NCBI GenBank assembly: GCA_963737265.1
Contig: CAVTRY010000013.1
Span: forward strand, 32,001-96,000
DNA length: 64,000 nucleotides
Origin: an uncultured delta proteobacterium
GTDB taxonomy: Bacteria > Myxococcota_A > Polyangia > Fen-1088
Direction: 5' to 3'
Made by a program: the position numbers and the translations under genes. Each line of letters opens with the position of its first letter. Position 1 is the first letter of the stretch. Below the pieces are notes generated by a model. It was given only the letters and a program-made list of their open reading frames with translations. It made no database searches and was not told the origin of the DNA. Shown one piece after another: positions 4,032 through 25,526 of this stretch.

Positions 4032-5939
4032 TCAAGAAGAAACCGTCTCGGGAGTTTTGGCTTCGATGGGCCGCGAGGAGTGTTCCACACAGGGCAAATG
4101 CAGCGTAAATGTACTGCCCCGCCCGGGAGCGCTCTTTACACTGACTTGGCCATTCATCGCTTCCATGATGCTCTTGGCCAGAGGCAGGCCCAGGCCCGTG
4201 CCGTGAATTTGCGCGGCCGTCACGGAAGGGCTGCGGTAAAATGGCTCGAAGATGTGGCGCAATTCCTCGGGAGCGATTCCGATCCCGCGATCCGAGACGC
4301 TGATCTGAATCTCTTTTCCGGTCAAGCCATGTTCGGCGAGCCGCGCCTGAATTCCGATCCATTTCTGTTCGCTGCCATATTTCAGTGCGTTGGTAATTAA
4401 ATTCTGCACGCACTGGGAAAGGGCGGCGAGATCGCCCACGATCCGTGGCAAGCTTGGCTCGATCTGTTGTTCCACGTGGAACCCCGCCGATCGAATGAGT
4501 CCCGCCGTGCCGGACAGCGCGGAATCTAGAATTTCCGGAACCTCCAGCGGGCGCAGGCTGTAGCGCTGCTGGCCTTCGCGAATTGCCGCGAAGAGCAGAA
4601 TTTGCTCGACCATTTCGAACAGCTTGCGGGCCTGCGCGCCGATCACAGAACCGTATTGTTCGAGTTGCGGCTTTCCTTCCACGACGCCGTGGGCGATGTT
4701 TTCGGCCGCGGAGCTGATGACGGTCAGCGGAGTTCGTAATTCGTGGGAAACCGCGGTAACGAAATCCATCTGCAGCTTGGCGAGCCTCTGCGCGCGCGTG
4801 CTCGTGAAGATCAGGATGGCCATGCTGATCACCAGGAGGAAAAGCACCCCGAAGCTGATCGCCAGATCGCGGCGGCGCGAGTCCGCAATGAAGGCCCCGA
4901 GCGCGCCTCCTCGCCGATGCCTTACGATCAGGCGCCAGTCCTGGTCCACGCCTGCATCGTGCAGGAGCGGGAACCACGTGACCGCCACCGAAGCCGCGGG
5001 GCCATTTTCTTGCGAGGGCGTATGGAAAACTTGAATCGGAGATCCATTCTTGTCGCCGCGCAGGCGCACAAAGATGTTCATCGTCCCGTCCGCGTCGGCA
5101 ATTTCCGAAGCGCCGAAGCCCGCGTCGGAAGAATAGAGAGGGCTACGTGTGTTTTTGCCAGTGGTTACGGCAACCTGATAATCGAGTCCGTTCGTGCCGC
5201 TGAAGTATCGCTGCGCGAGGGCTGGGAGAATATTGTTCTGCACATCCGCACGGTCCAGCGCGATCACCACCCAATCGACCGGACCTTGCGTTGCGCCCAG
5301 GCGGCCCGAAGAGGCGGAAGGATTGCGCATCACGGGCTGGACCAGCGCGGGAATGCGCGGTTCGAACTCCCATCCGGCGAGCGGCCCGCCCGTATAAAAG
5401 CGGTTTGCGAATTCTGCGTTTGCGTCAAGCGCCGCAGCGGCATTCGCTCCCCCGGGTGAGCCGAAGGCCGCAGTGGCGCCGGGTTTCGTTGCGGATTGCT
5501 GAAGTTCTTCGCGCAGGCCCGCCAAAATTGCCGGCCAGTCGCTCGGCTCGAATCGCTGGCTAGCGGGGCTTAGACGAAGGACTTGTGCGTCAGGAGATTC
5601 GGCGAGCCGCAAAATATAGAGCCCGGAAACAAGATTGGGATTCGCGGTCGTTTTTTTCCAGTCCGCAAATCTTCGCGCGTACTGATCCCAATCCGCCGGC
5701 GTGCTGGAGTCCGGGTCCACGCGCAGGGCCACGCAAATCTCGGAGAAGACGCGGAAGAAATCGAGATGCCAGTTGATCATGGACATCTGCAAACTGTCGG
5801 CGAGGCGGATGCTGGTGGCTTCGCTGACCTGATTGCTCCAGCGGTATTGCAGGACGCCCAGAACGATCACCACGACTACGGCGAGGATGATGATGACCGT
5901 CGAGAACTCGCGCTCTTTGATGTGCAGTTTCATATGCAA
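4032..5939 (-). CDS. Membrane sensor histidine kinase
   Basis: Two TM segments, H-box VSHELRTPL, N-box NLITNALKY, G1 DRGIGI, G2 GTGLGL. Confidence 0.95.
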   Translation of the reverse strand: MHMKLHIKEREFSTVIIILAVVVVIVLGVLQYRWSNQVSEATSIRLADSLQMSMINWHLDFFRVFSEICVALRVDPDSSTPADWDQYARRFADWKKTTANPNLVSGLYILRLAESPDAQVLRLSPASQRFEPSDWPAILAGLREELQQSATKPGATAAFGSPGGANAAAALDANAEFANRFYTGGPLAGWEFEPRIPALVQPVMRNPSASSGRLGATQGPVDWVVIALDRADVQNNILPALAQRYFSGTNGLDYQVAVTTGKNTRSPLYSSDAGFGASEIADADGTMNIFVRLRGDKNGSPIQVFHTPSQENGPAASVAVTWFPLLHDAGVDQDWRLIVRHRRGGALGAFIADSRRRDLAISFGVLFLLVISMAILIFTSTRAQRLAKLQMDFVTAVSHELRTPLTVISSAAENIAHGVVEGKPQLEQYGSVIGAQARKLFEMVEQILLFAAIREGQQRYSLRPLEVPEILDSALSGTAGLIRSAGFHVEQQIEPSLPRIVGDLAALSQCVQNLITNALKYGSEQKWIGIQARLAEHGLTGKEIQISVSDRGIGIAPEELRHIFEPFYRSPSVTAAQIHGTGLGLPLAKSIMEAMNGQVSVKSAPGRGSTFTLHLPCVEHSSRPIEAKTPETVSS

Positions 5940-5943
5940 ATAA

Positions 5944-5968
5944 TGCCCGCCTGAAGGCGGGCGCTACA
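5944..5968 (-). repeat. Single REP
   Basis: Reverse complement of TGTAGCGCCCGCCTTCAGGCGGGCA, identical to the copy at 13944-13968. Confidence 0.85.
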
Positions 5969-5978
5969 TTACCTTCGG

Positions 5979-6665
5979 TTACGGTTTGAATTTGTAGCCG
6001 AAGCCTTGCACCGTCAGAATAAATTTCGGCTGCTTCGGGTCGTCTTCCAGTTTTTGGCGCAGGCTGGCGACGTGCACATCCACGGTGCGGGTGTACATGT
6101 CCGCGCTGTAGCCCCAGACTTGTTTCAACAGTTCCTCGCGTGAAAGAGTCGCGCCGCGATGCTCGATAAAATACCGCAGCAATTGAAATTCGCGCGCGGA
6201 AAGATTCACCGGTTTTCCGTCGCGGGTGGCTTCCGTTCCCGTAACGTCCACATGAATCGACCCGAAATCGATCCCGCCAGTATGGGCCGCCGGGCGAATG
6301 GGCGCGCGGCGCATCAGCGCCTCGACCCGCGCCATCAGTTCCAGCATGTTGAAGGGTTTCGTGACGTAATCGTCCGCGCCGATTTTCAGGCCGCTGACCT
6401 TGTCGCTGGTCTGCCCGCGCGCGGTAAGCATGAGGATGGGAGTGATGAGTCCTGCTTCACGAATTCCCTTGCACACGTCGAAGCCGTCCCGTTTGGGGAG
6501 CATGACGTCCAGGATGATCAGGTCAAAGGGAAGCTGCGTGGCCTTTTCGAAACCTTCATCGCCGTTTCCGGCGTAGTCAACGGCGTAGCCCTCGTTCCGC
6601 AGGCGGTCCCCAACCGTCATCTGCAGGGCCTGCTCATCCTCGATAAAAAGCACGTTTCCGCGCAT
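5979..6665 (-). CDS. OmpR/PhoB-family response regulator
   Basis: REC domain (IEDE, LDVMLP, LTA, GADDYVTKPF) plus winged helix (RTVDVHVASLRQKLE, TVQGFGY); ATG at 6665 preferred. Confidence 0.95.
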   Translation of the reverse strand: MRGNVLFIEDEQALQMTVGDRLRNEGYAVDYAGNGDEGFEKATQLPFDLIILDVMLPKRDGFDVCKGIREAGLITPILMLTARGQTSDKVSGLKIGADDYVTKPFNMLELMARVEALMRRAPIRPAAHTGGIDFGSIHVDVTGTEATRDGKPVNLSAREFQLLRYFIEHRGATLSREELLKQVWGYSADMYTRTVDVHVASLRQKLEDDPKQPKFILTVQGFGYKFKP

Positions 6666-6750
6666 CCAAACCCACCGCCATCGCGTCCAAGTTAATTGGG
6701 AGGACGCGTTTCGTGTACTCCAAAAAGGCACGTATATTCCAGTTGAATTC

Positions 6751-6780
6751 TTGACATGTTTTCTTGCTGGATGCTAGCCT
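6751..6780 (+). promoter_or_regulatory. sigma70-type promoter
   Basis: TTGACA (6751), 18 nt spacer, TAGCCT (6775) with an extended TG at 6772. Confidence 0.6.
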
Positions 6781-6823
6781 CGATAGATTAGCACAGCCTC
6801 CGCAGGGTACGCGGGGGCCACCG

Positions 6824-7169
6824 ATGAATTCCAAAACCCACCCCAAGCCGCCGATACCTTGCCAGCCTTCTCCTCTTATCGGGGATCCTGGTTCTCGGGA
6901 TTGTTCAATGGAGTTTTCTGCCCCTCCTGATTCAGAACGGGCCCGTGGCGAGCGCTGGCGTTCTGGAAATGTCGGCGAGCCATACTTCGAAATTTGCGGC
7001 TCCATTCAAATGTCTTTTCGGAGATGGGCTGAATCCGTGCCTCGTCCAATCGAGGATCACCGTGTGGAGAATGGCGTCCAGGATTGTTCGTCTGCCGGAT
7101 GCCCCGATTTCCGGGCAGGATGATTTTTCCCTCACGCACCGCCCCCTGCGCGCGCCGCCTTCCGCATAA
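6824..7169 (+). CDS. Small membrane-anchored upstream ORF with C-terminal RAPP motif (putative ribosome-arrest peptide); one apparent extra base near 6832-6844
   Basis: ATG at 6824. The frame of ORF 6945..7169 is open from 6828 and reads SRRYLASLLLLSGILVLGIVQWSFLPLLI...THRPLRAPPSA*. Confidence 0.65.
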
Positions 7170-7373
7170 GAACAAGCAGGGCCCGGTCCCTGCGGTGATT
7201 CCCGATAAAAATTAGGCGCGCGACGAATCGTTTAGGGCAGCGAATCCCATTTTCTTGCGGGTGCGAGTGACGGCTCGAGAGCAAGCGGCCCGTTCAAGAT
7301 ACAGCGATCCGCATAAAATAGAGCCCTGATTGCCCGCTGACATTCTGGAGAGATTTCTAATCTTGGAGATCCG

Positions 7374-8093
7374 ATGACCTCAAATCATATCGAGCCGGCA
7401 GTGCTGGAGGAATTGCGCCGATTGGATTCCTGCAATGTGGCCAACGCCATCGAGAAATTTGGCGTGCGCTTGCGCAATTCGGGATTTACTGATTCCACGG
7501 TTCGCTGCTTGTTTGAAGATTTTCCGCCCCTGGTGGGTTATGCGGCCACGGTCCGCGTCCGAACTTCCGAACCGCCCATGGAAGGGGATAGCTATTACTA
7601 CCGTCTTGACTGGCTCGACCATCTGTCCAATATTCCATCTCCCCGCGTGCTCGTCATGGAAGACCTGGACCCCCGCCCTGGCCTCGGTTCCTTCATCGGC
7701 GACGTCCACGCCAATATTTTGACGGCGCTCGGATTCGTTGGGGTGGTTACAAACGGCGCGGTCCGCAATGTCGAGGCGGCCCGGGCACTCAAATTTCAAA
7801 TGTTCGCCAGAAATCTGTCGGTTTCTCATGCGTTTGCCCACATTTTCGATTTCGGAGGCCCGGTCCAGGTGGGCAACATGCATGTGAAGCCGGGCGACCT
7901 GCTGCACGGGGACCGGCATGGAATCCAGACCGTTCCAGCCGAGATCGCACAAAAGGTTCCGGCTGTAGCAAAAAGAATGAACGGCGAGGAGCAGGAACTC
8001 ATTGAATTCTGCCAATCCGGCGGCTTTACGATGGAAAAACTGCATGCGAATGTGAATGCTCTTAGAATCAAAAGAAAGAATTTCAGGGATTAG
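7374..8093 (+). CDS. RraA-family / HMG-aldolase-like protein
   Basis: VANAIE, VGYAAT, GVVTNGAVRN and VKPGDLLHGDRHG motifs. Confidence 0.85.
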   Translation: MTSNHIEPAVLEELRRLDSCNVANAIEKFGVRLRNSGFTDSTVRCLFEDFPPLVGYAATVRVRTSEPPMEGDSYYYRLDWLDHLSNIPSPRVLVMEDLDPRPGLGSFIGDVHANILTALGFVGVVTNGAVRNVEAARALKFQMFARNLSVSHAFAHIFDFGGPVQVGNMHVKPGDLLHGDRHGIQTVPAEIAQKVPAVAKRMNGEEQELIEFCQSGGFTMEKLHANVNALRIKRKNFRD

Positions 8094-8097: not shown

Positions 8098-9346
8098 ATG
8101 ATGCGGGAAAGTGGAGGTCATCCAGTGCGGCGTATTCATGGAATCTTGAGTTTCATAATCTTCGTGATTTTTTGTGCCGCTTCCTTCGGGTGCGGCGAGG
8201 GACGCAAGGCGGCTGCTGACGATGCCTCAAACGCTCCCACGGCTGCCGTCGTGAAAGTGACGCGGGGAAACATCGCCGACAACCTGGAGATCGCCTCGGA
8301 ATTTCAGCCGTTCCAGGAAGTGGACGTGTACGCGAAGGTTTCCGGCTATATTCAAAAGCTCTACGTCGATTACGGAACGCACGTGAAGCAGGGGCAACTC
8401 CTCGCCGTGTTGGAAATCCCGGAACTCCAGCAACAGTTGCAGCAGGATGAGGCCTCCGTCCGCCGGAGCGACCAGGAGCTTACCCGATCTCGCGAAGATC
8501 TGAACCGGGCGCAATCGGCCTACACCGTCGCGAACCTCACCTACACGCGCCTCGCCGACGTACAAAAGTCGCGTCCGGAGCTTATCTCGCAAGAGGAAAT
8601 CGATGTCGCAAAAGGGAAGAACATGGAAGCGGATGCGGATGTGTCCGCGCAGAAGGCGGCGCTCTCCGCGGCGCAGGAAGCGTTAACCGCGGCAAAGGCC
8701 GCGCTCGGCAAGGATCAGGCCATGTTCGACTACGCGCGAATGACGGCGCCGTTCGACGGCGTGATCACGCAGATATACGCGTACACGGGAGCGCTGCTTC
8801 CGGCCGGAACTTCCTCGAACAAGGGCGATTCCGCGCTTTGCCGCTTGTCGCAAAACAGTCTCTTGCGGCTCGTGATTCCGGTTCCCGAAAGAGCTGTGCC
8901 CGATATTCGCACGGGGGAAGCAGTAGTTGTGATTGTTTCCGGCTTAAACCGGACATTCGAGGGCAAAATCATCCGATTCCTCGGACCAGATTGACACGGC
9001 GACTCGCACGATGCACACCGAAGTCGATGTGCCCAATCCCCGCTTTGAATTGGTTCCGGGAATGTACGCCTCCGTGAAAATTCCTCTTCATTCGGTCGCG
9101 AATACCTTGATGGTTCCTGTCCAGGCGGTACTGGCGACGGGAGAAGGGAAGGGAACAGTCCTGGTGGTGGATAAAAGCAATCGAATCGAAAAACGCGCCG
9201 TCACGCTGGGAATGCAATCCTCCGCGAACGACGAAATCGTTTCCGGGCTCCAGGAAAATGAAACCGTCATTTTTGGGTCCCAGGGACAGTATCAAGCGGG
9301 GCAAATCGTTTCACCAAAACTCATCGAGCCTTCCATGACTGAATAG
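8098..9346 (+). CDS. RND membrane fusion (periplasmic adaptor) protein, frameshift at ~8983
   Basis: AKVSGYI...GQLLA lipoyl half and APFDGVIT; continues as TRTMHTEVD...PGMY in ORF 9011..9346. Confidence 0.9.
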
Positions 9347-9358: not shown

Positions 9359-12300
9359 ATGCCCTCCTTTGCCATTCGACATCCGTATTTGTTGATCGTT
9401 GTTTGTTTGTTCGTTTGCGTGCTCGGTCTGACCAGCGTCACGCGCATGCCCGTGGATATGTTTCCACCGATCAATCTTCCGGTGGTACTGGTCGCGACGT
9501 TTTATAGCGGAATGCCCCCGCAGCAGATCGAAGCCGACATTACCGACACGTTCGAGCGTTTTTTCACACTGGCCAGCGGAATCGACCACATGGAATCGCG
9601 GTCGATGACCGGCGTCAGCCTCATTAAGATCTACTTTCAACCGGGAACCGATGCGAATGCCGACGTGACCCAGGTCTCGAACCTCGCCATGGCGGACCTC
9701 CGAAGGCTGCCTCAGGGAACACTCCCCCCCGTCGTCATGAAGGTGGATGCCTCCAGTTTGCCGGTTTGCCTCTTGACCGTTTCGGGAGAGGGGTTGAACG
9801 AAACCCAGCTCCACGACTACCTGCAATACCAGATCCGAAACCAGGTCGCCGGCGTCCCTGGTGCGACGGTTCCACCCCCGTACGGCGGAAAATATCGGCA
9901 GATCATGGTCTATGTGGACCCGGTCAAACTGCAAGCCCACGAATTGAGTCCCATGGATGTGGTCCGCGCGACCAACTCTTCGAACTTGATTCTGCCTGCC
10001 GGGGACGTACGGATCGGGCCAATGGATTACAACATTTACACCAACGCCCAGGTCTCGGATGCAAAGGACCTTAACGGAGTCCCGATCAAAACCGAGGGCC
10101 AGAAATCCGTGTTTCTCTCCGACGTAGGCAGCGCTGTCGACGGCTCGGCCACGCAATACAACATTGTCCGTGTGGACGGCCAGAAATCGGTGTACGTCGC
10201 GGTGCAGAAGCAAGGCGGCGACACGAACACCATTGCCGTTGTGAACGGGATCAAGAACGCCATACAATTTCTGCGCGATATTCCGTCCCAGCTCAAGGCG
10301 CACGTCGTTTTCGACCAGTCTCTCTTCGTCAAGCAAGCCATTTCGACTGTACTTCGCGAGGGCAGCATCGGTCTTCTACTGACCGCAATCATGGTGCTGA
10401 TTTTTCTCGGGAGCGTTCGGGCCACGCTGGCCGTGCTTCTTTCGATTCCGCTTTCCGTCATGATCGTATTTTTCGTGCTCTATACCGGGAATCGCTCGAT
10501 CGACAGCATGGTTTTGAGCGGACTGGCCCTGGCGTTTTCCCGCTTGATCGACAACTCCGTGATCGTCCTCGAAAATATTTTTCGCCACATCGAGCACGGC
10601 GAGGACCCTCCGACTGCGGCGGAGAAGGGCGCCAATGAAGTGGTTCTCCCCGTGCTCGCGATCACGTTGATCGCGGTAGTAGTGTTCTTTCCGGTGACGT
10701 TTTTGTTCGGAGTCAGCAAGGACTTGTTCACCGCTCTCGCCCTCGCCGTTGTGATCGCTCTGTTTGCTTCTTACTTCGTTGCCGTCACGGTTGTGCCTCT
10801 TTACAGCGCGCGCTACCTCAAGCCGATGGAGGCGCATGGCGAACAGGAAGGGCGCTCCGCACTGGCCGGATTTCACACCTGGTTCAACGCCAAATTCGAG
10901 ATGCTTGCTGAACTTTTACGAACGATGGGTGCGAAGCGCCCTCGACCACCCCGCGAGAGTTCTCTATGGATTCGGCGCCTTGTTTCTCCTGAGCTTCCTT
11001 CTATTTCCCTTCGTGGGGCTTTCGTTTTTCCCCGAACCGATGCCGGGCAATTTGTGATCAACGTGAAGGCCCCGACGGGCACTCGAATCGAGCTGACGGA
11101 AAAATACGTGGAAAAGGTGGAAGACATCGTGCGGCAAATCGTTCCCGCCTCCGAGCTGAATACCATTGTTTCCAACATTGGCCTCACGCCTGACCTGTCC
11201 TCGCTGTTCACGCCGAATTCCGGAATGCACACGGCTTTCGTTCAAGTGGGACTGAAGGAGGACCATCAAGTGAATAGTTACGTCTACATGGGCCGGGTCC
11301 GCAATCGCGTAGCGAGGGAACTTCCGGAGTTGCGGACGTTCTTCCAGTCCGGCGGATTGGTCGATGCGGTCTTGAACCAGGGCGCCCCTGCGCCAATCGA
11401 CGTTCAAGTCAGCGGAATGGATTTGGAGGGAGATGACCGCGTTGCCGAGGAGCTCGCTCGCAAATTCCGTGCGGTACCGGGAGTTTCCGACGTGTACGTT
11501 CCGCAGGACATGGACTATCCGGCGTTGCAAGTGAACGTGGATCGCGAGCGCGCCAGCGAATTGGGACTGGACTCGAAGGAAGTGATCGACAACGTGATTA
11601 CGTCGCTGACCTCGGACGCGATGATTGCGCCGAGCTACTGGGTCGATCCCAAAAGCGGTAATAACTATTTCGTAACTGTCCAATATCCCGAAAATCAGGT
11701 GAAGTCCATCGAGGATCTGAAGGCCATGCCGTTGCACGCTCCCAATCTGAAACTTCCGACGTATTTGAATCAAGTCGCCGACGTGCGCCTGATCCGTTCT
11801 CCCACCGAAGTAGACCACTACCAACTGCAAAGAAGCATTGACGTGTATGTCTCCCCCTCCGGCGAGGATCTCGGGAAAGTCGCGAAAGCTGTTACAAAGA
11901 TTATCGCGGACACGCAACTTCCTCCGAACCTTCGCATTAACCTGCGGGGATTAGTGGTCACCATGCAGTCTTCGTTCCGGAGCTTCGGGTTTGGGCTTCT
12001 GCTCGCCGTGCTGCTGGCCTATTTGGTTTTGGTCGCGCAGTTCACATCCTTTGCCGATCCCTTTTTGATTGTTCTGGCGGTTCCGACCGGCATCATCGGA
12101 GTCCTGTTCACTCTCGCTCTGACCGGAACCACGCTGAACATCCAATCGCTGATGGGGGTGGTGATGCTGCAGGGAATGGTGGTCTCGAACAGTATCCTCA
12201 TCGTGGATTTCGCCAATGTGCTCCGCAGCGAGGGACATTCCGTCCTGGAAGCGATCGCGGACGCTTGCCGAATCCGTTTGCGTCCGATCCTGATGACTTC

Positions 12301-12505
12301 CTTGGCAACCATTGTCGGACTCCTGCCAATGGCCCTTAAACTGGAAACCGGCAGCGAAGCGTATGCACCGCTGGCGCTGGTCATTATCGGAGGATTGATC
12401 TCGTCCATCCTCCTGACGATCTTCGTCGTGCCGGCGGCCTACCTGTTGATCTACCGGCGTCGCGAAGCATCGGCGCGCGCCCCGGTCTTAGGGGAGGCGC
12501 ATTAA
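9359..12505 (+). CDS. RND efflux permease (AcrB/NolG-like), with compensating frameshifts at ~10905 and ~11025
   Basis: DMFPPINLP, LIDNSVIVLENI, RLRPILMT; the missing TM helix VLYGFGALFLLSFLLFPFVGLSFF lies in the alternate frame (10764..11057). Confidence 0.95.
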   Translation: MPSFAIRHPYLLIVVCLFVCVLGLTSVTRMPVDMFPPINLPVVLVATFYSGMPPQQIEADITDTFERFFTLASGIDHMESRSMTGVSLIKIYFQPGTDANADVTQVSNLAMADLRRLPQGTLPPVVMKVDASSLPVCLLTVSGEGLNETQLHDYLQYQIRNQVAGVPGATVPPPYGGKYRQIMVYVDPVKLQAHELSPMDVVRATNSSNLILPAGDVRIGPMDYNIYTNAQVSDAKDLNGVPIKTEGQKSVFLSDVGSAVDGSATQYNIVRVDGQKSVYVAVQKQGGDTNTIAVVNGIKNAIQFLRDIPSQLKAHVVFDQSLFVKQAISTVLREGSIGLLLTAIMVLIFLGSVRATLAVLLSIPLSVMIVFFVLYTGNRSIDSMVLSGLALAFSRLIDNSVIVLENIFRHIEHGEDPPTAAEKGANEVVLPVLAITLIAVVVFFPVTFLFGVSKDLFTALALAVVIALFASYFVAVTVVPLYSARYLKPMEAHGEQEGRSALAGFHTWFNAKFEMLAELLRTMGAKRPRPPRESSLWIRRLVSPELPSISLRGAFVFPRTDAGQFVINVKAPTGTRIELTEKYVEKVEDIVRQIVPASELNTIVSNIGLTPDLSSLFTPNSGMHTAFVQVGLKEDHQVNSYVYMGRVRNRVARELPELRTFFQSGGLVDAVLNQGAPAPIDVQVSGMDLEGDDRVAEELARKFRAVPGVSDVYVPQDMDYPALQVNVDRERASELGLDSKEVIDNVITSLTSDAMIAPSYWVDPKSGNNYFVTVQYPENQVKSIEDLKAMPLHAPNLKLPTYLNQVADVRLIRSPTEVDHYQLQRSIDVYVSPSGEDLGKVAKAVTKIIADTQLPPNLRINLRGLVVTMQSSFRSFGFGLLLAVLLAYLVLVAQFTSFADPFLIVLAVPTGIIGVLFTLALTGTTLNIQSLMGVVMLQGMVVSNSILIVDFANVLRSEGHSVLEAIADACRIRLRPILMTSLATIVGLLPMALKLETGSEAYAPLALVIIGGLISSILLTIFVVPAAYLLIYRRREASARAPVLGEAH

Positions 12506-13851
12506 TGCGTAGTTCTTGTGGCTCGTTGCTTTTTCTTATTTTCACCGGCGTCCTTTTCGCTGCCGGCCCATCTGGAGCGCAAACTCCGCCGCAGAATTCC
12601 GCTCTAGGTCCATCGCAAACCCCCAATCAAAATGCGCAGCGCCTGACGATGCAGGACGCGGAAAAGATTGCCATCCAAAACCATCCGCAGATTCAAGCGG
12701 CGACGGAATTAGCTTCGGCCGCCGCGGCTCAGGTGAAGGAGATTCAATCCGCCTATTATCCGCAATCGAGCGGGGCTTTCACGGGCGCCAAGGCGGAATC
12801 GAACAGCCGCATCGCCGCGGGGTTCTTGAACAGCCCGTCCTTGTTCGACAAGTTTGCCGAAGGGATTTCCGTTAGCCAGCTCGTGACCGACTTCGGCCGG
12901 ACGCACGAGCTCTCGAAGAGTTCGCATTTTCACGCGCAGGCGCAGCAGGAAAATGTTGTTACCACGCGCGCCGATGTGCTTTTGCGCGTCAACCTGTCCT
13001 ACTTCGCCGTGATGAAGGCGCAATCAGTCCTTCAAGTCGCTGAGGAGACGGTAAAGGCGCGCCAGTTGGTCGTCGATCAAGTGAGCGCCCTCGCGAAGAG
13101 CAGCCTCAAGTCCGGCCTGGACGTGAGTTTTGCGAATGTGGACCTGGCTCGAGCGCAGCTCTTGCTGGTGCAGGCGCAAAACGACTTGCAATCCTCCTAT
13201 GCGCAACTTTCCGACGCGCTCGGTTATTCGGACCAGCGGACGTTTCAGCTGGTCGACGAGCCTTCGCCGGGTTCTCCTCCGCCGGATGTGGCGCCGCTGA
13301 TTGCCGAAGCGTTGCAGAACCGGCCCGAAATCATAAGTCAGGGGTTTGACCTGCGGTCGGCGCAAAGCTACGCCACAGCGGAACGCGATCTCTGGTTTCC
13401 CACGATCTCGGCCGCCGGAGTAACCGGCCTTGTCCCCTACCGGCAAGACACATTGCCCAGCCGCTACGCCGCGGCGGGATTCAACGTCAATGTCCCGATC
13501 TTTAACGGACGACTTTTTAACGCCGAGCACACGGAGGCGACGGCGCGTGCACGCGCGCAGGAGCAATTTCTTCGCGATCTTCAGAACCGCGTCGCCCAGG
13601 ACGTCCGCACGTCCTGGCTCAATGTCATCTCCGCCTACCAGCGCCTATCCCTCACCCAACAATTGCTCGATCAGACCACCCAGGCTTTCGATCTGGCCAA
13701 GGGGCGGTACCAATTGGGCTTGAGCTCGATCATCGAACTCAGCCAGGCGCAATTGAATTTGACCGAGGCGCAAGTCGAGCAAGTCAGCGCGCAGTACGAT
13801 TACGAAAGCCAGACAGCCAATTTGAATTACCAGTTGGGACGCGTGAAGTGA
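12505..13851 (+). CDS. TolC-family outer membrane factor
   Basis: Signal peptide, two OEP repeats, RYQLGLSSIIELSQAQ; TAATG overlap with the RND gene. Confidence 0.9.
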   Translation: MRSSCGSLLFLIFTGVLFAAGPSGAQTPPQNSALGPSQTPNQNAQRLTMQDAEKIAIQNHPQIQAATELASAAAAQVKEIQSAYYPQSSGAFTGAKAESNSRIAAGFLNSPSLFDKFAEGISVSQLVTDFGRTHELSKSSHFHAQAQQENVVTTRADVLLRVNLSYFAVMKAQSVLQVAEETVKARQLVVDQVSALAKSSLKSGLDVSFANVDLARAQLLLVQAQNDLQSSYAQLSDALGYSDQRTFQLVDEPSPGSPPPDVAPLIAEALQNRPEIISQGFDLRSAQSYATAERDLWFPTISAAGVTGLVPYRQDTLPSRYAAAGFNVNVPIFNGRLFNAEHTEATARARAQEQFLRDLQNRVAQDVRTSWLNVISAYQRLSLTQQLLDQTTQAFDLAKGRYQLGLSSIIELSQAQLNLTEAQVEQVSAQYDYESQTANLNYQLGRVK

Positions 13852-13967: not shown

Positions 13968-14009
13968 ACAACCCCCGGACATTTGAATGCCGGTGCGCCA
14001 TCTCCGCGC

Positions 14010-14039
14010 TTGACAACTTAATTTCTTGCGCCCTATGCT
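14010..14039 (+). promoter_or_regulatory. sigma70 promoter, probably giving a leaderless rpiB mRNA
   Basis: TTGACA-18-TATGCT; GTG start 7 nt after the -10 box. Confidence 0.6.
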
Positions 14040-14046
14040 GAGGCCC

Positions 14047-14475
14047 GTGAAAATCTCCATTGGTTCCGATCACGCCGGATTTGAATACAAGGAAAAAATA
14101 CGGGCACTTCTGTCCTCGCTCGGCCATGAAGTGAAGGACTTCGGCACGTACAGCGCCGAGCCGCCCGTGGACTATCCGCTCTTCATCCGCCCCACGGCGG
14201 AGGCCGTCGCCTGCGGCGAGTTCGAGCGCGGCATCGTGCTCGGCGGTTCGGGAAACGGGGAAGCGATGGTCGCCAACAAGGTGCATGGCATCCGCTGCGC
14301 GCTTTGCTGGAGCCTGGAGACAGCCCGCCTCGGGCGAGCCCACAACGACAGCAACGTCCTTTCAATCGGCCAGAGAATGATTCCCGAGGATCTGGCGCTG
14401 GAAATTGTGAAGGTTTGGCTCGTCACGCCTTTCGAGGGCGGTCGTCACATCCGCCGCATCGCCGAGATCGAATAA
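14047..14475 (+). CDS. rpiB: Ribose-5-phosphate isomerase B
   Basis: IGSDHAG, DYP, GGSGNGE, ANKV, RAHND, FEGGRHIRR. Confidence 0.95.
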   Translation: MKISIGSDHAGFEYKEKIRALLSSLGHEVKDFGTYSAEPPVDYPLFIRPTAEAVACGEFERGIVLGGSGNGEAMVANKVHGIRCALCWSLETARLGRAHNDSNVLSIGQRMIPEDLALEIVKVWLVTPFEGGRHIRRIAEIE

Positions 14476-14502
14476 TATTCATTGGGCCTTCCCGAGGTGA
14501 TC

Positions 14503-15531
14503 ATGAAGCGGCTTTTGAAAGTGTCCGTTGTAATTGTGCTGTGCCTCGTCGTCTTGCTTGCAGCGGGAATTACGGCGACGATTGGCTGGCGTCCGTTCAT
14601 TGGCCCGCGCATGCGCCCCCTGACCAATCGAGTGTTCGAAAAGACCCCGGAGCGATGGTCGCGCGGACAATACATTGTCGAAAACGAAGCCGCGTGCATG
14701 GATTGCCATTCGCCGCACGATTGGACCAAGCACGACGCCCCAATGATTCCCGGCATGGAAGGGGCTGGCCAGGATTTTTCGATCTTGCAGGGCTTGCCGG
14801 GCCATGTGGTGGTGCCCAATATTACGCCCGATCCCGAGACCGGGGCCGGTACGTGGAGCGATGACGCCCTGGCCAGGGCGATTCGCGAGGGGATCGGGCA
14901 CGACGGCCGAACGTTATTTCCTCTGATGCCCTACGAAAACTACCGGCACATGCCGGATGAGGATCTGGCATCGGTGATTGTGTATTTGCGTTCACTGCCG
15001 CCCGTTCGGAACGCCATGCCGAAAACGGAAATCATTTTTCCCGTGAAATATCTCATGCGAAGCACGCCTCAGCCGGTCACGGAGCCAGTGTCCGCTCCCG
15101 ATGTTTCCGACCCGGTGAAGCGCGGCGCCTTCCTGATGACCATCGCGAGTTGCAGGGACTGCCACACACCGATGGATAAGGGCGCGCCACTCCCGAACAT
15201 GGATCTGGCGGGCGGACAGATTTTCGAGGGCCCGTGGGGAAGAGTCGCCACACCTAACCTGACTCCCGATCCGTCGGGCATTCCGTACTACGACGAAATT
15301 CTGTTTTTGCAGGCGATTCGAACCGGATACGTCAAGGCCCGGCCTTTGAATCAGATGATGCCCTGGCACATTTACCGCGGCATGACGGACGACGATTTGA
15401 AGGCCATTTTTGCCTATTTGAAGACGGTCAAGCCTGTCCATCATGTTGTGGATAATGCGGAGCCGCCGACGATGTGCGTGTTATGCGGGGCGATGCACGG
15501 CGGCGGGGATAAGAATCAGAAAGCGCAGTAG
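14503..15531 (+). CDS. Membrane-anchored dihaem cytochrome c
   Basis: N-terminal TM, CMDCH and CRDCH, duplicated PN(I/L)TPD...MP...D.DL motifs. Confidence 0.9.
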   Translation: MKRLLKVSVVIVLCLVVLLAAGITATIGWRPFIGPRMRPLTNRVFEKTPERWSRGQYIVENEAACMDCHSPHDWTKHDAPMIPGMEGAGQDFSILQGLPGHVVVPNITPDPETGAGTWSDDALARAIREGIGHDGRTLFPLMPYENYRHMPDEDLASVIVYLRSLPPVRNAMPKTEIIFPVKYLMRSTPQPVTEPVSAPDVSDPVKRGAFLMTIASCRDCHTPMDKGAPLPNMDLAGGQIFEGPWGRVATPNLTPDPSGIPYYDEILFLQAIRTGYVKARPLNQMMPWHIYRGMTDDDLKAIFAYLKTVKPVHHVVDNAEPPTMCVLCGAMHGGGDKNQKAQ

Positions 15532-15607
15532 GACGGGCTTCAGCCTGTCTGGGTTTGAATTTTGCGGACTCTGCGTCCAAAGCAGACAGGCTTGAAGCCT
15601 GTCCTAC
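15528..15607. repeat. REPIN whose terminal GTAGs contain the stop codons of both flanking genes
   Basis: GTAGGACGGGCTTCAGCCTGTC ... GACAGGCTTGAAGCCTGTCCTAC; TAG at 15529-31 (+) and 15606-04 (-). Confidence 0.9.
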
Positions 15608-16656
15608 TGTTTCCCAATCACCAGTACTCCAAATGTGCCGGGGAGAACCGGGGGTCTCGCCCTCGGATTCTCGGGAGTCGGAGCTGGGCGGGGGCCAAGT
15701 TCCGCGGCTGCGACATACACCCTGCCGGTTTTTCGATCGACAGCCATCGTGCGCGCGCCTGCTTGCGTGGGCACGTTTTCGACAAGCTCATACTGGTCCG
15801 GCGTTTTTTCATGGAAAATCGAGAGAACGCCGTCCGCGCCCGTGGAAAAATAGGCCAGCCCCGATTTCGGATCGAACTCCGCAGCGTCCACGCCTCCGCC
15901 GATTTTGTTGCTGGCGACGATCTTGCCCGAGGTCGCGTCCACAACGATCATCATTCCGGCGCCGCGGCAGCCGATGAAAATGCGCGCGTGGGCGCGGTCC
16001 ATGTCCATACTGCTGGGCGCTTCGCACGGGGCCGTGGACCAGGTTTCCATCACTTTCAATTCCTTCGCGTCGAGTTTCAAGAGGGTGTTGCGATCCTGCA
16101 TGTTCAGGAAGACGTGCCCGGCTTCGTCGGAGGCGAGGTGTTCCGTTCTGCCGCCCAGATTTTCGATTGTTCCGGCGATTTTGCCGGTCTTCGCATCGAT
16201 GGCGGTGACGCGTTTGCTGCCGCGGTCCGCGGTAAAGATGCGCTTCGTCAAATGGTCGTAGATGATTCCATTCGGGTCGTCTCCCACCCTCACTTCGCCG
16301 ATCTTCGCCAGGTTTTTGAGATCGAAGATCACGACGGAGCCGGGATTGCTCTGGGTGATGAATCCGCGTCCAAATTCGGAAGCGATTGCGGCGCCGTGCA
16401 TGTCCGGGCCGCCCGTGATTTTTCCGATGATGGCTCCGGTATCGAGATCGAGGACAACAATCTCTTTGTCGTGCGAAACGTACAACCTGCGGCCATCGCT
16501 GTCCGCCGCGACATAATCCCATCCTCCGTCGCCGGGGATGGGAATCTTTTTGATTAGATGGTAAGCGCCTGCGGCCGCCGCTGCGATTGCAATCAATGTG
16601 GAAAAAACTAATGTGAAAGCTGCGAGCCGCAGGATTCCAGTTTCAGTTTTCTTCAT
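15604..16656 (-). CDS. Secreted YncE/YVTN-type beta-propeller protein
   Basis: Signal peptide, GGWDY, repeated blades, GARTMAVD. Confidence 0.85.
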   Translation of the reverse strand: MKKTETGILRLAAFTLVFSTLIAIAAAAAGAYHLIKKIPIPGDGGWDYVAADSDGRRLYVSHDKEIVVLDLDTGAIIGKITGGPDMHGAAIASEFGRGFITQSNPGSVVIFDLKNLAKIGEVRVGDDPNGIIYDHLTKRIFTADRGSKRVTAIDAKTGKIAGTIENLGGRTEHLASDEAGHVFLNMQDRNTLLKLDAKELKVMETWSTAPCEAPSSMDMDRAHARIFIGCRGAGMMIVVDATSGKIVASNKIGGGVDAAEFDPKSGLAYFSTGADGVLSIFHEKTPDQYELVENVPTQAGARTMAVDRKTGRVYVAAAELGPRPAPTPENPRARPPVLPGTFGVLVIGKQ

Positions 16657-16778
16657 CGTATTCTTCCTCGATTGCGCGTCGACAACGGCTACTCAAGTGA
16701 AGGCATTCTATCCCGGATTTTCACCATTGGTTTCAGAATCTGCACCTATGCCGTGGATGGGACTTGGCCTGCAGCATT

Positions 16779-16807
16779 CGTGGCGCCGGCGGGACGCCGG
16801 CGCCACG
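16779..16807. repeat. GTGG-type REP palindrome
   Basis: CGTGGCGCCGGCG GGA CGCCGGCGCCACG; related to the copy at 28774-28796. Confidence 0.75.
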
Positions 16808-16851
16808 AAAGGTTTGTGTTCCTCCGAATAGGATTTGGCGCGAAATAAATG

Positions 16852-18480
16852 CTAATCCACGGCGGGAAGCTTGGAAACATCCCAGCCGCCGCCGAGGGCT
16901 TCCACAAGGAGAACGGTGGACGTCAAACGGCGAGTCAGGAGACTGACGGCCGCCCGTTCGTTTGACAGCGCGGCGCTCTGCGCGGTAATCACGGTCAGGT
17001 AGGTGTCAAGCCCGCCCTTGTACCGGTTCGTGGATTGCTCGAGAGCGCGATTCGCGGCTCCAACCGCCGCGTCCTGCGTCTTCGCTTCTTCCTCGAGGAC
17101 TCGAAGGTCGGACAAGGAATCCTCCACCTGCTGGAACGAGGTGAGCACCGTCTGCTGATAATCCGCAATCATTTCGTCGTAGCTGGCGATGGCCTGATCG
17201 GATACGGCGCGCCTGCGCCCGGCATCGAAAACAGTTTCCGCCGCGGTCGCGCCAATGGACCAGAGTGCGCTCGGCCCCGTCAGCCAATTTGGAAACCGGC
17301 CGCTCTCGAATCCTCCCACGAGCCCCAGGGTGATCGTCGGGAAAAAAGCCGCCCTCGCGATTCCAACCTGCTCGTTGGCGGAGGCGACTCGTCTTTCCGC
17401 GCCGGCAATGTCGGGGCGCCTTTCGACGAGTTCAGACGGAAGCCCGGGAGGAGGCACCGGCGGAGTGGCGGGCAGCGGAGCGGGATCCAGACTGAAAGTG
17501 GAAGCCGGCTGCCCGATGAGTACGGCGACGGCGTGTTCAAATTGGTCCCGCGCGGAAGTAATGTCAATATCCTGGGCGCGCGTTTGCTCGAGTTGCGTGT
17601 CGGCCAACTCCACGTCTTCCCGCGAAGCGACGCCGCCCTTGAAACGGTCCTCGGTGAGTTGCACCGCTTTTTGAAAGGCATCGACGTTGGTATCGAAGAG
17701 CTGCTTCTGCGCATCGAGTCCGCGGAGCGTCAAGTAATCCAGCGCCAGTTCCGCATGTAGGCTGAGACGCAGCGTTTCGAGATCTGCGGCCGAGGCCTGC
17801 GCCAGCGAGCGGCTTGATTGCACGCTTCGACGGACACTCCCCCAGACGTCCGCCTCATAGGAAAAATCTCCCGCGAGCGTCAGGTCCGAATAATTGACCG
17901 GAGCGGTCCCGCCGAAAAGGGCTTTATGCTGGGATTGCCGGTCTTGCGACGGCGTTACGCTGGCGGTGACGAGCGGATACAGGGCGGATCGCGTCTCCCG
18001 CAGCACGTCGCGCGCTTCCTGAAACCGGTCCACGGCGGCTCGCAGGGATTGGTTGGAGACGTCGACTTTTTCTTCCAGGGCATTCAGCTGGGGGTCCTGA
18101 AAAATCTCCCACCATTTTCCCTTTTGCGCCTGGTCGCCCGGCTGCGCCGGTTTCCAGTTTGCATTTTCCTTGTATGCAGGCGGAATTTGCGTCGTGGGTT
18201 TTGAATACTTCGGGCCCACGGAGCAGCCGCCGGCGAGGAGAATGCCCAGGGAAAGAATCGGAAATATTCGCAGGCGAAACGCGCTTCGACAGAAGCGCCC
18301 CGCATTTTTGTCATTCCGAGCGGAGCGAGGAATCTCTCTTTCTTTTCTTAAACGTAAACCGAGGAGAGATTCCTCGCTCCGCTCGGAATGACAAAATTGA
18401 TTATTGTTTCCGCAGCCGGAAAAGTAACTTCCAGGCTGGCCATGTTGGAATGACCGGGAATCTCCAGTCCGCCGAAACAT
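16852..18480 (-). CDS. NodT/OprM-type outer membrane efflux lipoprotein
   Basis: Lipobox-like LAGGC-SVGPKY, WW.IFQDPQLN, LPSELVERRPDIAGAER; ATG at 18480 overlaps the upstream TGA. Confidence 0.9.
   Translation of the reverse strand: MFRRTGDSRSFQHGQPGSYFSGCGNNNQFCHSERSEESLLGLRLRKEREIPRSARNDKNAGRFCRSAFRLRIFPILSLGILLAGGCSVGPKYSKPTTQIPPAYKENANWKPAQPGDQAQKGKWWEIFQDPQLNALEEKVDVSNQSLRAAVDRFQEARDVLRETRSALYPLVTASVTPSQDRQSQHKALFGGTAPVNYSDLTLAGDFSYEADVWGSVRRSVQSSRSLAQASAADLETLRLSLHAELALDYLTLRGLDAQKQLFDTNVDAFQKAVQLTEDRFKGGVASREDVELADTQLEQTRAQDIDITSARDQFEHAVAVLIGQPASTFSLDPAPLPATPPVPPPGLPSELVERRPDIAGAERRVASANEQVGIARAAFFPTITLGLVGGFESGRFPNWLTGPSALWSIGATAAETVFDAGRRRAVSDQAIASYDEMIADYQQTVLTSFQQVEDSLSDLRVLEEEAKTQDAAVGAANRALEQSTNRYKGGLDTYLTVITAQSAALSNERAAVSLLTRRLTSTVLLVEALGGGWDVSKLPAVD
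18306..18396. repeat. 33-bp perfect inverted repeat (TGTCATTCCG-type palindromic element)
   Basis: TTTTGTCATTCCGAGCGGAGCGAGGAATCTCTC, 25 nt loop, then the exact reverse complement. Confidence 0.9.
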
Positions 18481-19716
18481 CACGGTTTCCTCTGTGCGGG
18501 AGCCTGCGGTTCGGCGACACGGACTGGCGTGCCTTCGGCGAGAGAGTCGGAGGGATTCAACACCACCCATTCGTCGCCTTTGAGCCCGGCGACAATTTCA
18601 ATTTCCGTTCCGAAGTCCCGGCCCGGCGTAACCGGGATCAGGGAAATAGTCTTCCCGTCTTTTACAACCGCTACTTGCAGGCCCGCGGATTTGAAAATCG
18701 TCGTATTCACGGGAAGCGTAAACGTGTTCACAGGGGAGGGCATTTTGAGATGGACTTCCACGTAGCCTCCCGGTTTGAGCAGGTGCGCGGAATTTTCCAC
18801 ATCCACTTCGGTGAGCAAGGTTCGCGACGTGTTGTCAATCGCTCCGGAGCTCCTGGACGACGGTTCCCTGGAATTTACGGCCGGGGAATTCGGTGAGAAC
18901 CAGGTCCGCGTGCAGCCCCGGCCTGATCTCCGGAGAATTGAGCTGCGGGACGTTGACGTAGACGCGCAAAGGGTTCAAGGCCGCGATGTGAAACAGTTCA
19001 CGCGCCGTTCCGCCGCCGCTGCCGGAATCGATCAGCTGGCCAATGTCGGTATTGCGCGCCGTGATTACGCCGTCAAAGGGAGCGTACACTTTCTCGAACG
19101 ATTGCATGTCCTGCAGCCGCTTCACATTGGCCTGAGCTGATTCGACGGCGCTCCTGCGAGCATCGTAATTTCCCGTGGCGTTGTCGACGTCCTGTTGCGC
19201 GACCGAATCCGTTTTCAGCAATTCCTTGTAGCGGGTGGCCGTGATTTCCGCAAGGCTCATGTTTGCCTGGGCTGTTGTGAGATCGGCCCGCGCCTGCTGC
19301 AATTGCTGGTCTACTTCCGGCGAATCGATTTCGGCAAGGAGTTGTCCGGCTTTCACATTCGCGCCGATATCGGCGTACCACTTTTTCAGATAACCGTTGG
19401 TGCGCGCGAAAATGGGCGCATCGGTATAGGGCTGCATATCGCCGGGGATGACGATTTCCTCTTGAGGCGCCCCTGCCTTGGGATGAACGACGGAAACGGT
19501 CGGGATCGCGAGGTCGCGCGTCTCCAGGGACAGCTGCGCATTGGCCTTGCGGCGGCTCGAGATTCCCCAAATGACGACCATGGCGACGACAACCACGATG
19601 AGCAAGAGCATTACCGTGCGGGTCACCTTGCTGCCGGGAGAAGGTGAACCGCCGTACTGCTCATGCTCGCCGGCCGGCGCGTCCGCGCGGCCCCGCTGAT
19701 TGGTAACAACCTCCAT
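18480..19716 (-). CDS. RND membrane fusion protein, frameshift at ~18850
   Basis: TM anchor, ARTNGYL...GQLLAEID, APFDGVIT; continues as LLTEVDVEN...PGGY in ORF 18480..18818. Confidence 0.9.
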
Positions 19717-19783
19717 CTGATCCTCCGAAATTCGGGTGCGGGCTGTCGCCGCGGCGACGAGCGCGCATGAAAACTGGTCCAGA

Positions 19784-22984
<3,201 letters not shown>

Positions 22985-23267
22985 ACCGTGCTCTTAACTC
23001 CCAGGACTGCCCGCGCCGGGCTTTGCCGACACACGGGCGAAAATCATCGTAAACGCTTCCAGCGATTGCATTATCGGTCCGATTTCCCGCGCATGAAATC
23101 CGGTCTTCGCTGGCGAATCTGAAGTTTATCTACGACTTGCGTTTTCTTTCCCCAACTCGCGACTCCCGAAGGATTTGCCGGGGCGCGCAAACCACACAAT
23201 CTTCAGATGCAAGAGCCCAAAACCGCGTTACAAACTCATTTCCCAGAGTTGTCATCAAGCCTGCCGC

Positions 23268-23948
23268 CTACTCCACAGGGACGCAGCTCGAAAAAATGGA
23301 ATCGAAAAAAATGCCCATCACTTTGCGCACGTCTCCATCGGACAGCGTCTTGGGGTCGAGCAGGTGTTCGAGCAGCAATCCTTGCGAGAGCGCCCCGAGG
23401 CAAGCCGAGGCCGCCGGGTACTCGATGGGAACGGTCTTGCCCAGCGTGCGCATGGTTTCGGCGAACAGCCTTCCCACCGAGGCGCGGATGCGGCGGTGCC
23501 GGCTGCGCAGCCGGGCGTGCGACTCGGGGTGGCGCATGGCGAACAATTTGAATTCCATGGAGATCAGGACCAGGGGGCGGTCCTTGGCGTGTTCGGCGTA
23601 ATGGCTTCGCAGCGCCACGAGTTTTTCGGCGGGATCGGAGTGTCTCCGGACGGCGTCCGTTAGGGATTCGATCCTCTCCCGCACCCACTCCTCGAACAGG
23701 GCAAAGAAGATATCTTCCTTGCTTTTGAAGTTGGCGTAAAAAGCGCCTCGAGTGTATCCGGCGCCCGCCGCAATGTCTTCGAGGCGGGCCGCTTCAAAGC
23801 CGACCTTGGCGAAAATGCGCTTGGCGGCGTCCAGCAATTTCCGGCGGGTGGCCCGGGTGCGTTCGGCCTGGCGGGTGCGGGACGCGACGGGCAGGGAGGC
23901 TCGTCCCCGGCTGGTCTTGCCGCGTGCCGTTAGTGACATGGGCTTCAT
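23268..23948 (-). CDS. TetR/AcrR-family repressor
   Basis: HTH LEDIAAGAGYTRGAFYANFKSKEDIF. Confidence 0.95.
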   Translation of the reverse strand: MKPMSLTARGKTSRGRASLPVASRTRQAERTRATRRKLLDAAKRIFAKVGFEAARLEDIAAGAGYTRGAFYANFKSKEDIFFALFEEWVRERIESLTDAVRRHSDPAEKLVALRSHYAEHAKDRPLVLISMEFKLFAMRHPESHARLRSRHRRIRASVGRLFAETMRTLGKTVPIEYPAASACLGALSQGLLLEHLLDPKTLSDGDVRKVMGIFFDSIFSSCVPVE

Positions 23949-23966
23949 TGCTTCGGCGCGCTTCGC

Positions 23967-23995
23967 TTGACAGGATACATACGTGTATGTATCTT
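23967..23995 (+). promoter_or_regulatory. sigma70 promoter containing a TetR-type palindromic operator
   Basis: TTGACA-17-TATCTT; GATACATAC-GT-GTATGTATC at 23974-23993. Confidence 0.8.
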
Positions 23996-24123
23996 ACTAG
24001 GGCGTGTCCGGCCATGCAAGTCTTAATTGCAAAATCGGACGACCCGCCTTGCCTCCCCCTTGGATCGTGAACTCCGAGCGTTGCGGGCGCGGCTGGTCAA
24101 TCCTGAAGAATCGAGCGGTCTTC

Positions 24124-25524: not shown

Positions 25525-25526
25525 CC

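Follow-up and report, generated by a model that had tools for sequence, protein, structure and literature searches.

Arrest peptides with RAPP, RAPG or RAGP motifs, such as ApdA, ApdP, ApcA and SecM, reportedly belong to genes for Sec and YidC functions. In Bordetella pertussis, the upstream open reading frame (ORF) of bfrG encodes the DUF2946 protein CruR (Bp2923), which couples ribosome stalling at RAPP to Rho-dependent termination in a 162-bp spacer, with the rut site located in a C>G bubble at the 3' end of its ORF (PMC9426467). The leader CutF acts by melting a stem-loop over the ribosome binding site (RBS) of the next gene (10.1101/2025.02.05.636593). RAPP is depleted in proteomes, including those of Acidobacteriota (mean bias 0.117 in the supplement), but is found more often than expected close to the C-terminus of small proteins that are exported or reside in the membrane. 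All seven S. lividans small proteins with a C-terminal RAPP or RGPP, as well as CruR, stalled in vitro (PMC12992588). The same work, Fujiwara et al. 2025, lists RAPP upstream ORFs before RND adaptor genes as enriched in silico, and two of the listed ORFs before TolC genes end in PPLRAPP plus 3-4 residues (PMC12992588). Here we describe a small membrane protein gene of this type, hereafter the leader, which precedes an efflux operon encoding an RraA-like protein, an RND periplasmic adaptor (MFP), an RND permease and a TolC-family outer membrane factor (OMF). The leader lies on the forward strand of the window, which is the whole stretch of 64,000 nucleotides analyzed from contig CAVTRY010000013.1 of assembly GCA_963737265.1. 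With a probability of roughly 0.62, we suggest that the leader is a cis-acting RAPP arrest leader of the CruR/ApdP type, which probably acts through Rho. The leader family is unnamed and new, the kind of regulator is already known and the target class is already catalogued.

The leader ORF as it stands in the window (protein P0001) occupies positions 6828 to 7169 and has 113 codons without a start, compared to 114 amino acids in relatives. The preliminary description of the locus had pointed out that the ORF list yields only a 74-residue piece beginning at a GTG (6945 to 7169) and that the frame is open from 6828, which is what the sequence directly gives. A TGA at 6825-6827 lies immediately 5' of the open frame. 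The frame reads IPKPTPSRRYLASLLLLSGILVLGIVQWSFLPLLI...HRPLRAPPSA with the stop at 7167-7169, and starts out basic, continues with a hydrophobic segment of 24 residues and, after about 75 more residues, reaches the RAPP end, whose codons are found at 7149-7160 as first described. The leader translation is matched at E≤0.01 by 301 proteins among 337 candidates. Among the 120 matches listed, 107 are 114 amino acids long, identities range from 69 to 90%, and all are unnamed and without Pfam domains. Homologues start with MNPK or MNSK and end in PLRAPPS or PLRAPPSA. Judged by these matches, the leader ORF is a member of a real gene family, far beyond chance. The hosts of the leader-pump loci are soil Acidobacteria. 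Neither the leader protein nor its RNA has a family in Pfam, NCBIfam or Rfam, and a profile search of 1.84 billion representatives recovered only 24 leader matches at E≤0.001 and no distant named relatives. Two database proteins, P0135 and P0138, join the first ~80 leader residues to the C-terminal part of a TolC-family protein and are either operon deletion variants or assembly artefacts.

To assess the C-terminal motif, we collected 96 loci around leader relatives, 16 from species genomes and 80 from metagenome contigs, with near-duplicates included and 74 distinct 3' ends. The ORF is cut by contig ends in three loci and complete in 93. The expectation that an ORF with a transmembrane (TM) segment and a RAPP end would be conserved ahead of homologous pump operons was borne out, as 92 of the 93 complete loci retain R[AG]PP followed by two to three residues and the stop. 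The sole exception (L017) is a frameshifted long-read metagenome-assembled genome (MAG), in which RAPPSAS is found in the next frame. Endings are dominated by RAPPSA (67 loci), followed by RAPPSV (6), RAPPSAS (5), RAPPSS (4), RAPPAA (4) and RAPPTA (3), with single cases of RAPPHA, RAPPAI and RGPPTC. Synonymous variation occurs in all four motif codons among the distinct 3' ends: arginine is encoded by CGC (67), CGG (4), CGT (2) or CGA (1), alanine by GCA (35), GCG (33) or GCC (5), the first proline by CCG (31), CCA (29), CCT (10) or CCC (4) and the second proline by CCT (58) or CCC (16). Mean pairwise differences at codon positions 1, 2 and 3 are 0.21, 0.16 and 0.38 across 58 distinct 114-codon leader ORFs, and 0.12, 0.12 and 0.41 for residues 100-112. 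Constraint thus acts on the leader peptide. Among 18 representatives fetched from the profile search, eight full-length proteins end in RAPP and five distant ones in RSPP. In natural variants of the motif, the arginine and both prolines are thus invariant, and alanine is replaced by glycine or serine. In ApdA and ApdP, the arginine is irreplaceable, the change of alanine to glycine keeps or strengthens arrest and the change to serine keeps part of it (PMC12992588). Since the natural variation corresponds to substitutions that retain arrest in ApdA and ApdP, it supports an arrest function of the leader motif.

The leader protein shows a fixed geometry around this motif. The membrane helix comprises family residues 13-36 (6861 to 6932) with the invariant core G-I/L-x-Q-W-S-x-L-P-x-L and a basic N-terminal side. 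Hydropathy (Kyte-Doolittle) reaches its maximum of 2.1 at residue 14 (segment 14-32), and AlphaFold2 (AF2) predicts a confident helix at residues 9-37 (pLDDT ~90), the rest having low confidence (mean pLDDT 60.7) and the C-terminal 75 residues being predicted unstructured. Based on these predictions, the leader carries an N-terminal signal sequence or TM segment, in line with the helix originally proposed, which is conserved across the family. Columns M1, L22, G25, Q28, W29, S30, P33, L35, R109, P111 and P112 are invariant in 47 sequences down to 33% identity, and conservation reaches at least 90% at H53, K56, F57, A59, P60 and K62 in the same set. Entropy is lowest in the TM segment (0.79), intermediate in a conserved middle block at residues 45-78 (H-x-S-K-F-A-A-P-F-K..., 6957 to 7058; 1.28) and in residues 100-112 (1.18), and highest in the linker at residues 79-99 (7059 to 7121; 2.18). 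Despite its variable sequence, the linker has a fixed length, and 127 of 130 family proteins have a distance of 81 residues between QWS and the motif arginine. The protein ends in an arrest-type C-terminus, [FL]-[ST]-x-x-x-L-R-A-P-P-S-A-stop (7122 to 7169). A stall is predicted with the proline codon 7155-7157 in the P site and the proline codon 7158-7160 in the A site, a position modelled on toeprints of ApdA, ApdP and CruR (PMC12992588). In a ribosome stalled there, with ~35-40 residues in the tunnel, the linker and the C-terminus would be inside and the conserved block just outside. A ligand bound by the two cysteines, one of the signals originally considered, is not supported. The two residues are 8 apart, neither is invariant and no CXXC or CXXXC metal-binding motif is formed. 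Cys63 is kept in ~50-59% and Cys72 in ~70-79% of the 47 sequences, and distant members lack both.

The leader is tied to the pump rather than to the gene that directly follows it. All 64 loci for which more than 1700 nucleotides of downstream sequence are available have an MFP gene after the leader, and 58 of these have the RraA-like gene, so the leader does head an efflux operon as initially claimed. The six loci without the RraA-like gene keep a ~190-nucleotide spacer and a remnant of the RraA start. Since the MFP gene is constant and the RraA-like gene optional, the constant partner of the leader is the pump and not RraA. In the window, the optional RraA-like gene (PF03737, 2.9e-20) is located at 7374 to 8093, the MFP gene at 8098 to 9346 (contiguous in relatives; TIGR01730 on the homologue at locus L018), the permease gene at 9359 to 12505 (PF00873, 2.8e-201) and the OMF gene at 12505 to 13851, all on the forward strand. 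The permease homologue of L018 scores 460 bits with RND_permease_2 and 270 bits with CusA/CzcA, with no model at its cut-off. By these scores, the permease is nearest to multidrug-type models, and the leader does not appear to head metal-homeostasis genes. A divergent two-component system lies on the reverse strand at 4032 to 6665, with an OmpR-type response regulator (5979-6665) and a histidine kinase (4032-5939). Upstream sequence of more than 900 nucleotides is available for 64 loci, and in 60 of them an OmpR-type regulator adjoins the leader. Loss of the RraA-like gene was seen at L055, L082, L084, L091, L092, L098, L101, L102 and L108, where the leader, the hairpin after its stop, the ~190-nucleotide spacer and, ahead of the MFP gene, a remnant of the RraA start are kept.

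The RNA following the leader stop carries several conserved features. A hairpin, GCAGGG-N6-CCCTGC, occupies 7176 to 7193 on the forward strand (arms 7176-7181 and 7188-7193), starting 6 nucleotides after the stop. The element had been noted in the window alone, and proves to be conserved with covariation. A covariance model recovers it from 79 of 81 sources. In an alignment fitted to the model, pairing extends to 94.1% of cells and four of the six pairs show compensatory changes; 0 of 500 shuffles scored as high and slid controls reached 37-58%. The distance from stop to stem is 3, 6 or 10 nucleotides among loci. The 3' flank (7194 to 7211, forward strand) reads GGTGATTCCCG(A/T)T(A/G)AAAA and is conserved as GGTGATTCCCGTTGAAAA, with each base present in 52-70 of 76 distinct sequences except for one position with 44. 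The flank fits what we take to be the pause consensus G(-10)...Y(-1)G(+1), at 10-11 nucleotides after the hairpin, and might represent a hairpin-linked pause element. Pairing of this motif with the Shine-Dalgarno (SD) sequence of the RraA-like gene was dropped as a candidate, as the motif is kept in loci lacking both that gene and its SD. The hairpin was likewise rejected as an intrinsic terminator for most loci, which have no T run. At L104 (2572-2638), the hairpin is followed by eight T and constitutes a canonical intrinsic terminator.

An untranslated spacer of 204 nucleotides (7170 to 7373, forward strand) separates the leader from the RraA-like gene, and is poorly conserved except for its two ends, with the SD GGAG at 7365-7368. 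Across loci, the gap to the next gene is 112-295 nucleotides and mostly ~200. Apart from the post-stop hairpin, RNAalifold detected no consensus structure in 48 leaders and none at the downstream SD, and folds for SD accessibility gave no consistent partner, with predictions differing between loci. A gap of this size fits Rho-type control as in CruR, one of the two options first suggested in place of simple SD unmasking, and no SD-masking fold is supported. The end of the ORF and the stop lie in a C>G bubble (7090 to 7190, forward strand; C ~0.38-0.42, G ~0.20-0.27), a candidate loading site for Rho. C exceeds G in 98-100% of 84 distinct loci for 78-nucleotide windows centred from -60 to +10 relative to the stop, and the flanks have at least as much G as C.

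The comparisons establish the family with its invariant motif and fixed geometry, its constant position ahead of the pump genes, the post-stop hairpin and the C>G bubble, while stalling, the sensed signal, the use of Rho and the sign of regulation are inferred. The leader would be transcribed from its own conserved promoter, and its N-terminal helix would insert in the membrane with the N-terminus inside, so that block 45-78 emerges on the outer side. The ribosome would stall when Pro111 occupies the P site and Pro112 the A site, for a time set by the state of the helix and loop, i.e., by a bound membrane or periplasmic ligand or by contact with pump parts. Stalled and queued ribosomes might cover the C-rich end of the ORF and keep Rho off the transcript. 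RNA polymerase, held at the hairpin-linked pause past the stop, could then continue through the 200-nucleotide spacer into the (RraA-like)-MFP-RND-OMF genes. Upon release of the stall, the ribosome would terminate, the C-rich RNA would be exposed and transcription would end in the spacer. More tentatively, the nearly invariant helix (G-I-V-Q-W-S-F-L-P-x-L) and the outer loop could form a nascent-chain sensor of a new sort that, during the pause on RAPP, detects either membrane-active substrates of the pump or how abundant or occupied the RND pump itself is, which we regard as possible rather than probable. A generic sensor of membrane insertion capacity, as had been proposed, is not supported, as the TM core is the most conserved part of the protein and the downstream genes are not Sec or YidC.

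Several observations weigh against a Rho-linked arrest leader. The family is narrow, with 24 representatives at 50% identity, which makes the constant spacing weaker evidence than it appears. Purifying selection covers the whole protein and the TM core most, which also fits a stable functional membrane protein. RAPP arrest varies with the ribosome species and with the residues before the motif (PMC12992588). The C-richness follows partly from codons for Pro, Ala, Ser, His and Arg, and a Rho model does not need the conserved hairpin and flank, whose role is guessed. Finally, no Rho RNA-binding domain (PF07497) was found in the assembly holding the window (G000), a point that would lose its weight if that genome were not the real source of the window's first 37 kb.

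Evidence on the last point speaks for a different origin of the leader. PF07497 was found neither in G000 (99.5% complete) nor in 18 genomes of its family, several of these 19 genomes being 94-100% complete, and TIGR00767 gave only weak ATPase-like matches in G000. Ten of 12 genomes from other families of the class carry PF07497. The family of G000 may be a lineage without canonical Rho. The Rho RNA-binding domain is present in all five genomes holding homologous leader loci. The first ~68 kb of the contig (window 1 to ~37,000) have 56-60% G+C compared to 63.4% ± 2.6 for the genome. G+C steps from ~0.58 to ~0.64 at window position ~36,500-37,500, where collinearity with genomes G041-G044 also ends. 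Window positions 14000-33999 are collinear at 80-85% identity with the other genomes that hold such loci, and 40000-59999 show no similarity to them. In the ORF at 34943-37426 on the reverse strand, the N-terminus of an acetate kinase (residues 3-115) is joined to an outer-membrane beta-barrel lacking the first 140 profile positions. By these sequence comparisons, the first ~37 kb seem not to be truly from G000, and a chimeric join to the rest of the contig is probable. The true host of the leader would thus be a Rho-bearing lineage. The leader and the RraA-like protein had no significant match in 40 GTDB relatives of G000, because the stretch seems to come from another lineage. A stretch of ~110 nucleotides at window ~18,306-18,417 occurs in dozens of copies with 78-92% identity scattered through G041-G044 and looks like a small dispersed repeat.

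As an alternative explanation, an arrest leader might work through RNA structure or translation instead of Rho, which we consider unlikely. A ribosome on RAPP, with its leading edge at ~7167-7170, would leave the stem at 7176 folded, and a ribosome at the stop would melt it, so that melting could switch a pause, a terminator-like element or distant pairing at the next gene, as for CutF and SecM. The conservation and covariation of the hairpin, the conserved 3' flank and the canonical terminator of L104 are in line with such a switch, for which the stem-loop melted by CutF to free the next RBS provides a precedent (10.1101/2025.02.05.636593). Most loci, though, have no T run after the stem, the spacing from stop to stem is not constant, RNAalifold found no structure at the downstream SD and the SD partners differ by locus. 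A local anti-SD helix, GAUUUUC/GGAGAUC, before the RraA-like gene was 80.1% paired but was rejected, as 219 of 500 shuffles scored as high. The leader product could instead be a stable small membrane protein acting in trans, with RAPP only slowing or tuning its own synthesis. It might be an accessory of the RND pump similar to AcrZ or a modulator of the sensor kinase similar to MzrA or MgrB. The conserved TM core with its polar Q-W-S and proline, the purifying selection over the entire ORF and the fixed position beside pump (64/64) and two-component system (60/64) would suit such a protein. The long untranslated spacer, the own promoter and the 5' hairpin masking the SD are leader-like instead, the C-terminal 75 residues are predicted disordered, and RAPP, which is strongly avoided in ordinary proteins (PMC12992588), is invariant here with a tail of two to three residues. 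We judge this trans-acting explanation to be improbable, more so than the RNA-structure switch, although trans-acting and leader roles do not exclude each other.

The frameshift in the window raises the question of whether the leader, and perhaps the entire operon, is a decaying pseudogene in this genome. The start codon ATG at 6824 is out of the leader frame by one base, and its own frame stops at 7123. A DNA alignment of 14 loci places the extra base in the TT doublet at 6829/6830 (start codon and insertion 6824 to 6830, forward strand), where the window has ATGAATTCC and relatives have ATGAATCC or ATGAATTC-A. The preliminary description had placed the indel in the A or C runs at 6832-6844. 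The position needed correction and the repair was roughly right, as removing a base from these runs also yields a family-like N-terminus. A 94-nucleotide short-read Logan contig of a run of the same study (X1) has one base fewer at 6829, bringing the leader in frame with the consensus N-terminus. The contig differs at two further positions, 6815 and 6838, both matching the family consensus, and may come from the same strain as the window or a close one. The proposed check on reads is thus answered in part by this contig, with no window-identical contig spanning 6806-6854 among short Logan contigs, where identical contigs cover both sides. None of the sequencing runs listed for the stretch is an RNA run. 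The missing in-frame start, the lack of a window-identical read across this interval and the out-of-frame MFP and RND genes would agree with decay. The MFP gene has a one-base frameshift near 8975-8994, and is unbroken in relatives. The permease gene carries a compensated frameshift pair at ~10890-11060, which garbles TM7, with the second frame restoring a homologous TM7 stretch; relatives are intact at this site. These four single-base indels in ~6 kb are accompanied by no other decay, however, and one pair compensates within ~170 nucleotides. Other long-read MAG loci have frameshifts in differing genes (L017, L026, L030, L032, L033), and an in-frame M opens each of the 76 complete leader ORFs from metagenome contigs. 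Decay is therefore the least credible of the alternatives and very improbable. An assembly error is the most likely source of the extra base, given that the same operon carries three more indels, and the leader is probably intact in the cell. Leader genes of this kind are missed or truncated in annotation if assemblies carry indels as the window does.

Upstream of the leader, the promoter (6751 to 6780, forward strand) consists of the -35 element TTGACA (6751-6756), an 18-nucleotide spacer and TG-C-TAGCCT (6772-6780), as had been proposed, and is conserved in relatives. All 14 aligned loci share TTGACA and TGCTAGCCT without variation, and TTGACA-N17-19-TA[GA]C[CT]T is found in 62 of 75 distinct upstream sequences. 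A simple consensus promoter scan of the window did not call TAGCCT, which is accepted here as a promoter element on the grounds of conservation. At ~6700-6745, upstream of the -35 element, GGACG and GTACG stand out in a divergent promoter region with few conserved bases, are spaced about two helical turns apart and may be a binding site of the neighboring OmpR-type regulator. In the 5' untranslated region (UTR), a hairpin (6796 to 6818, forward strand) pairs CCUCC with the leader SD, GGGGG at 6813-6817 and GGAGG in relatives. At least four of ten bases of the SD window are paired in 73 of 75 distinct 5' UTRs, in minimum free energy folds made without a shuffle control, and compensatory variants such as GCUUCC/GGAAGC and GCCCC/GGGGC occur. 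With the SD paired in this hairpin, leader translation may be weak or conditional.

RND pumps are usually viewed as controlled by repressors and two-component systems. If our interpretation is correct, stalling leaders would supplement these with rapid control after initiation, taking its cue directly from the envelope, for an RND operon not concerned with metals. Should the sensor function also hold, no earlier arrest peptide would have been shown to control RND efflux of the multidrug (non-metal) type, and the leader would do so with sensing inside the membrane rather than via a metal site or the Sec machinery. The family is compact, with fixed geometry, a single TM helix, an invariant motif and an adjoining two-component system, and could serve as a convenient model for what pump-linked RAPP leaders sense, of which hundreds are catalogued.

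How far the target class was previously described depends on the catalogue of Fujiwara et al. 2025. The preliminary description knew of no arrest peptide for an RND target, which is outdated in part given the in silico listing in that work, where no pump-linked member was the subject of an experiment (PMC12992588). The strings QWSFLP, SKFAAPFK and 'RraA' were not found in the part of the supplement covered, so that their absence from the full supplement is not shown, and a full-text literature search for arrest peptides upstream of RND efflux genes retrieved nothing. The pump-linked ORFs of the catalogue share the genomic arrangement with our leader, and the two before TolC genes also resemble its PLRAPPSA end; the visible examples differ in being His/Cys-rich, and the catalogue is by annotation only (PMC12992588).

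Among characterized systems, CruR is the closest in layout. Each is a small protein, exported or membrane-bound, in which only a few residues separate RAPP from the stop, and each ORF is followed by a long spacer (162 bp in CruR, ~200 in the leader) and has a C>G bubble in its 3' part. In both, the spacing from the sensor motif to RAPP matters and the product is predicted to be poorly structured (PMC9426467). Kinship with DUF2946-type leaders is not supported, as there is no profile match and the cysteines are not conserved. P0001 has no match to PF11162 (DUF2946) at E≤0.1, and one of 25 family members reaches E=0.43. An atlas neighbor named DUF2946/DUF6769 (0.93, only 82 shared features) is a weak lead. 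Unlike CruR, the leader thus lacks a PF11162 match, a CXXC motif and a metal theme, and its conserved part is a TM helix with an H-x-S-K-F-A-A-P-F-K block. Its target is a multidrug-type RND operon instead of a TonB-dependent copper importer. Rho dependence was established for CruR (PMC9426467) and would apply to the leader by analogy. CutF of Rhodobacter capsulatus resembles the proposed leader in that stalling of an exported nascent chain, at prolines near its C-terminus, signals a condition across the membrane to the gene that follows. It differs as a DUF2946 protein whose Cys motif binds Cu and whose PPP-type motif responds to elongation factor P (EF-P), and a stem-loop covering the RBS is not supported for the leader. 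With ApdA, ApdP, ApcA and SecM, the leader shares an N-terminal signal or TM segment and a C-terminal R-A-P-P with G or S at the second place (PMC12992588). The C-terminal R-[A/G]-P-P, the N-terminal helix and the same-strand downstream gene are all features of RAPP-like arrest peptides, a kind rather than a homology family, to which the leader would belong. Unlike in those systems, the downstream genes encode RraA-like, MFP, RND and OMF proteins in place of Sec/YidC protein-localization factors, and the TM sequence is highly conserved rather than generic.

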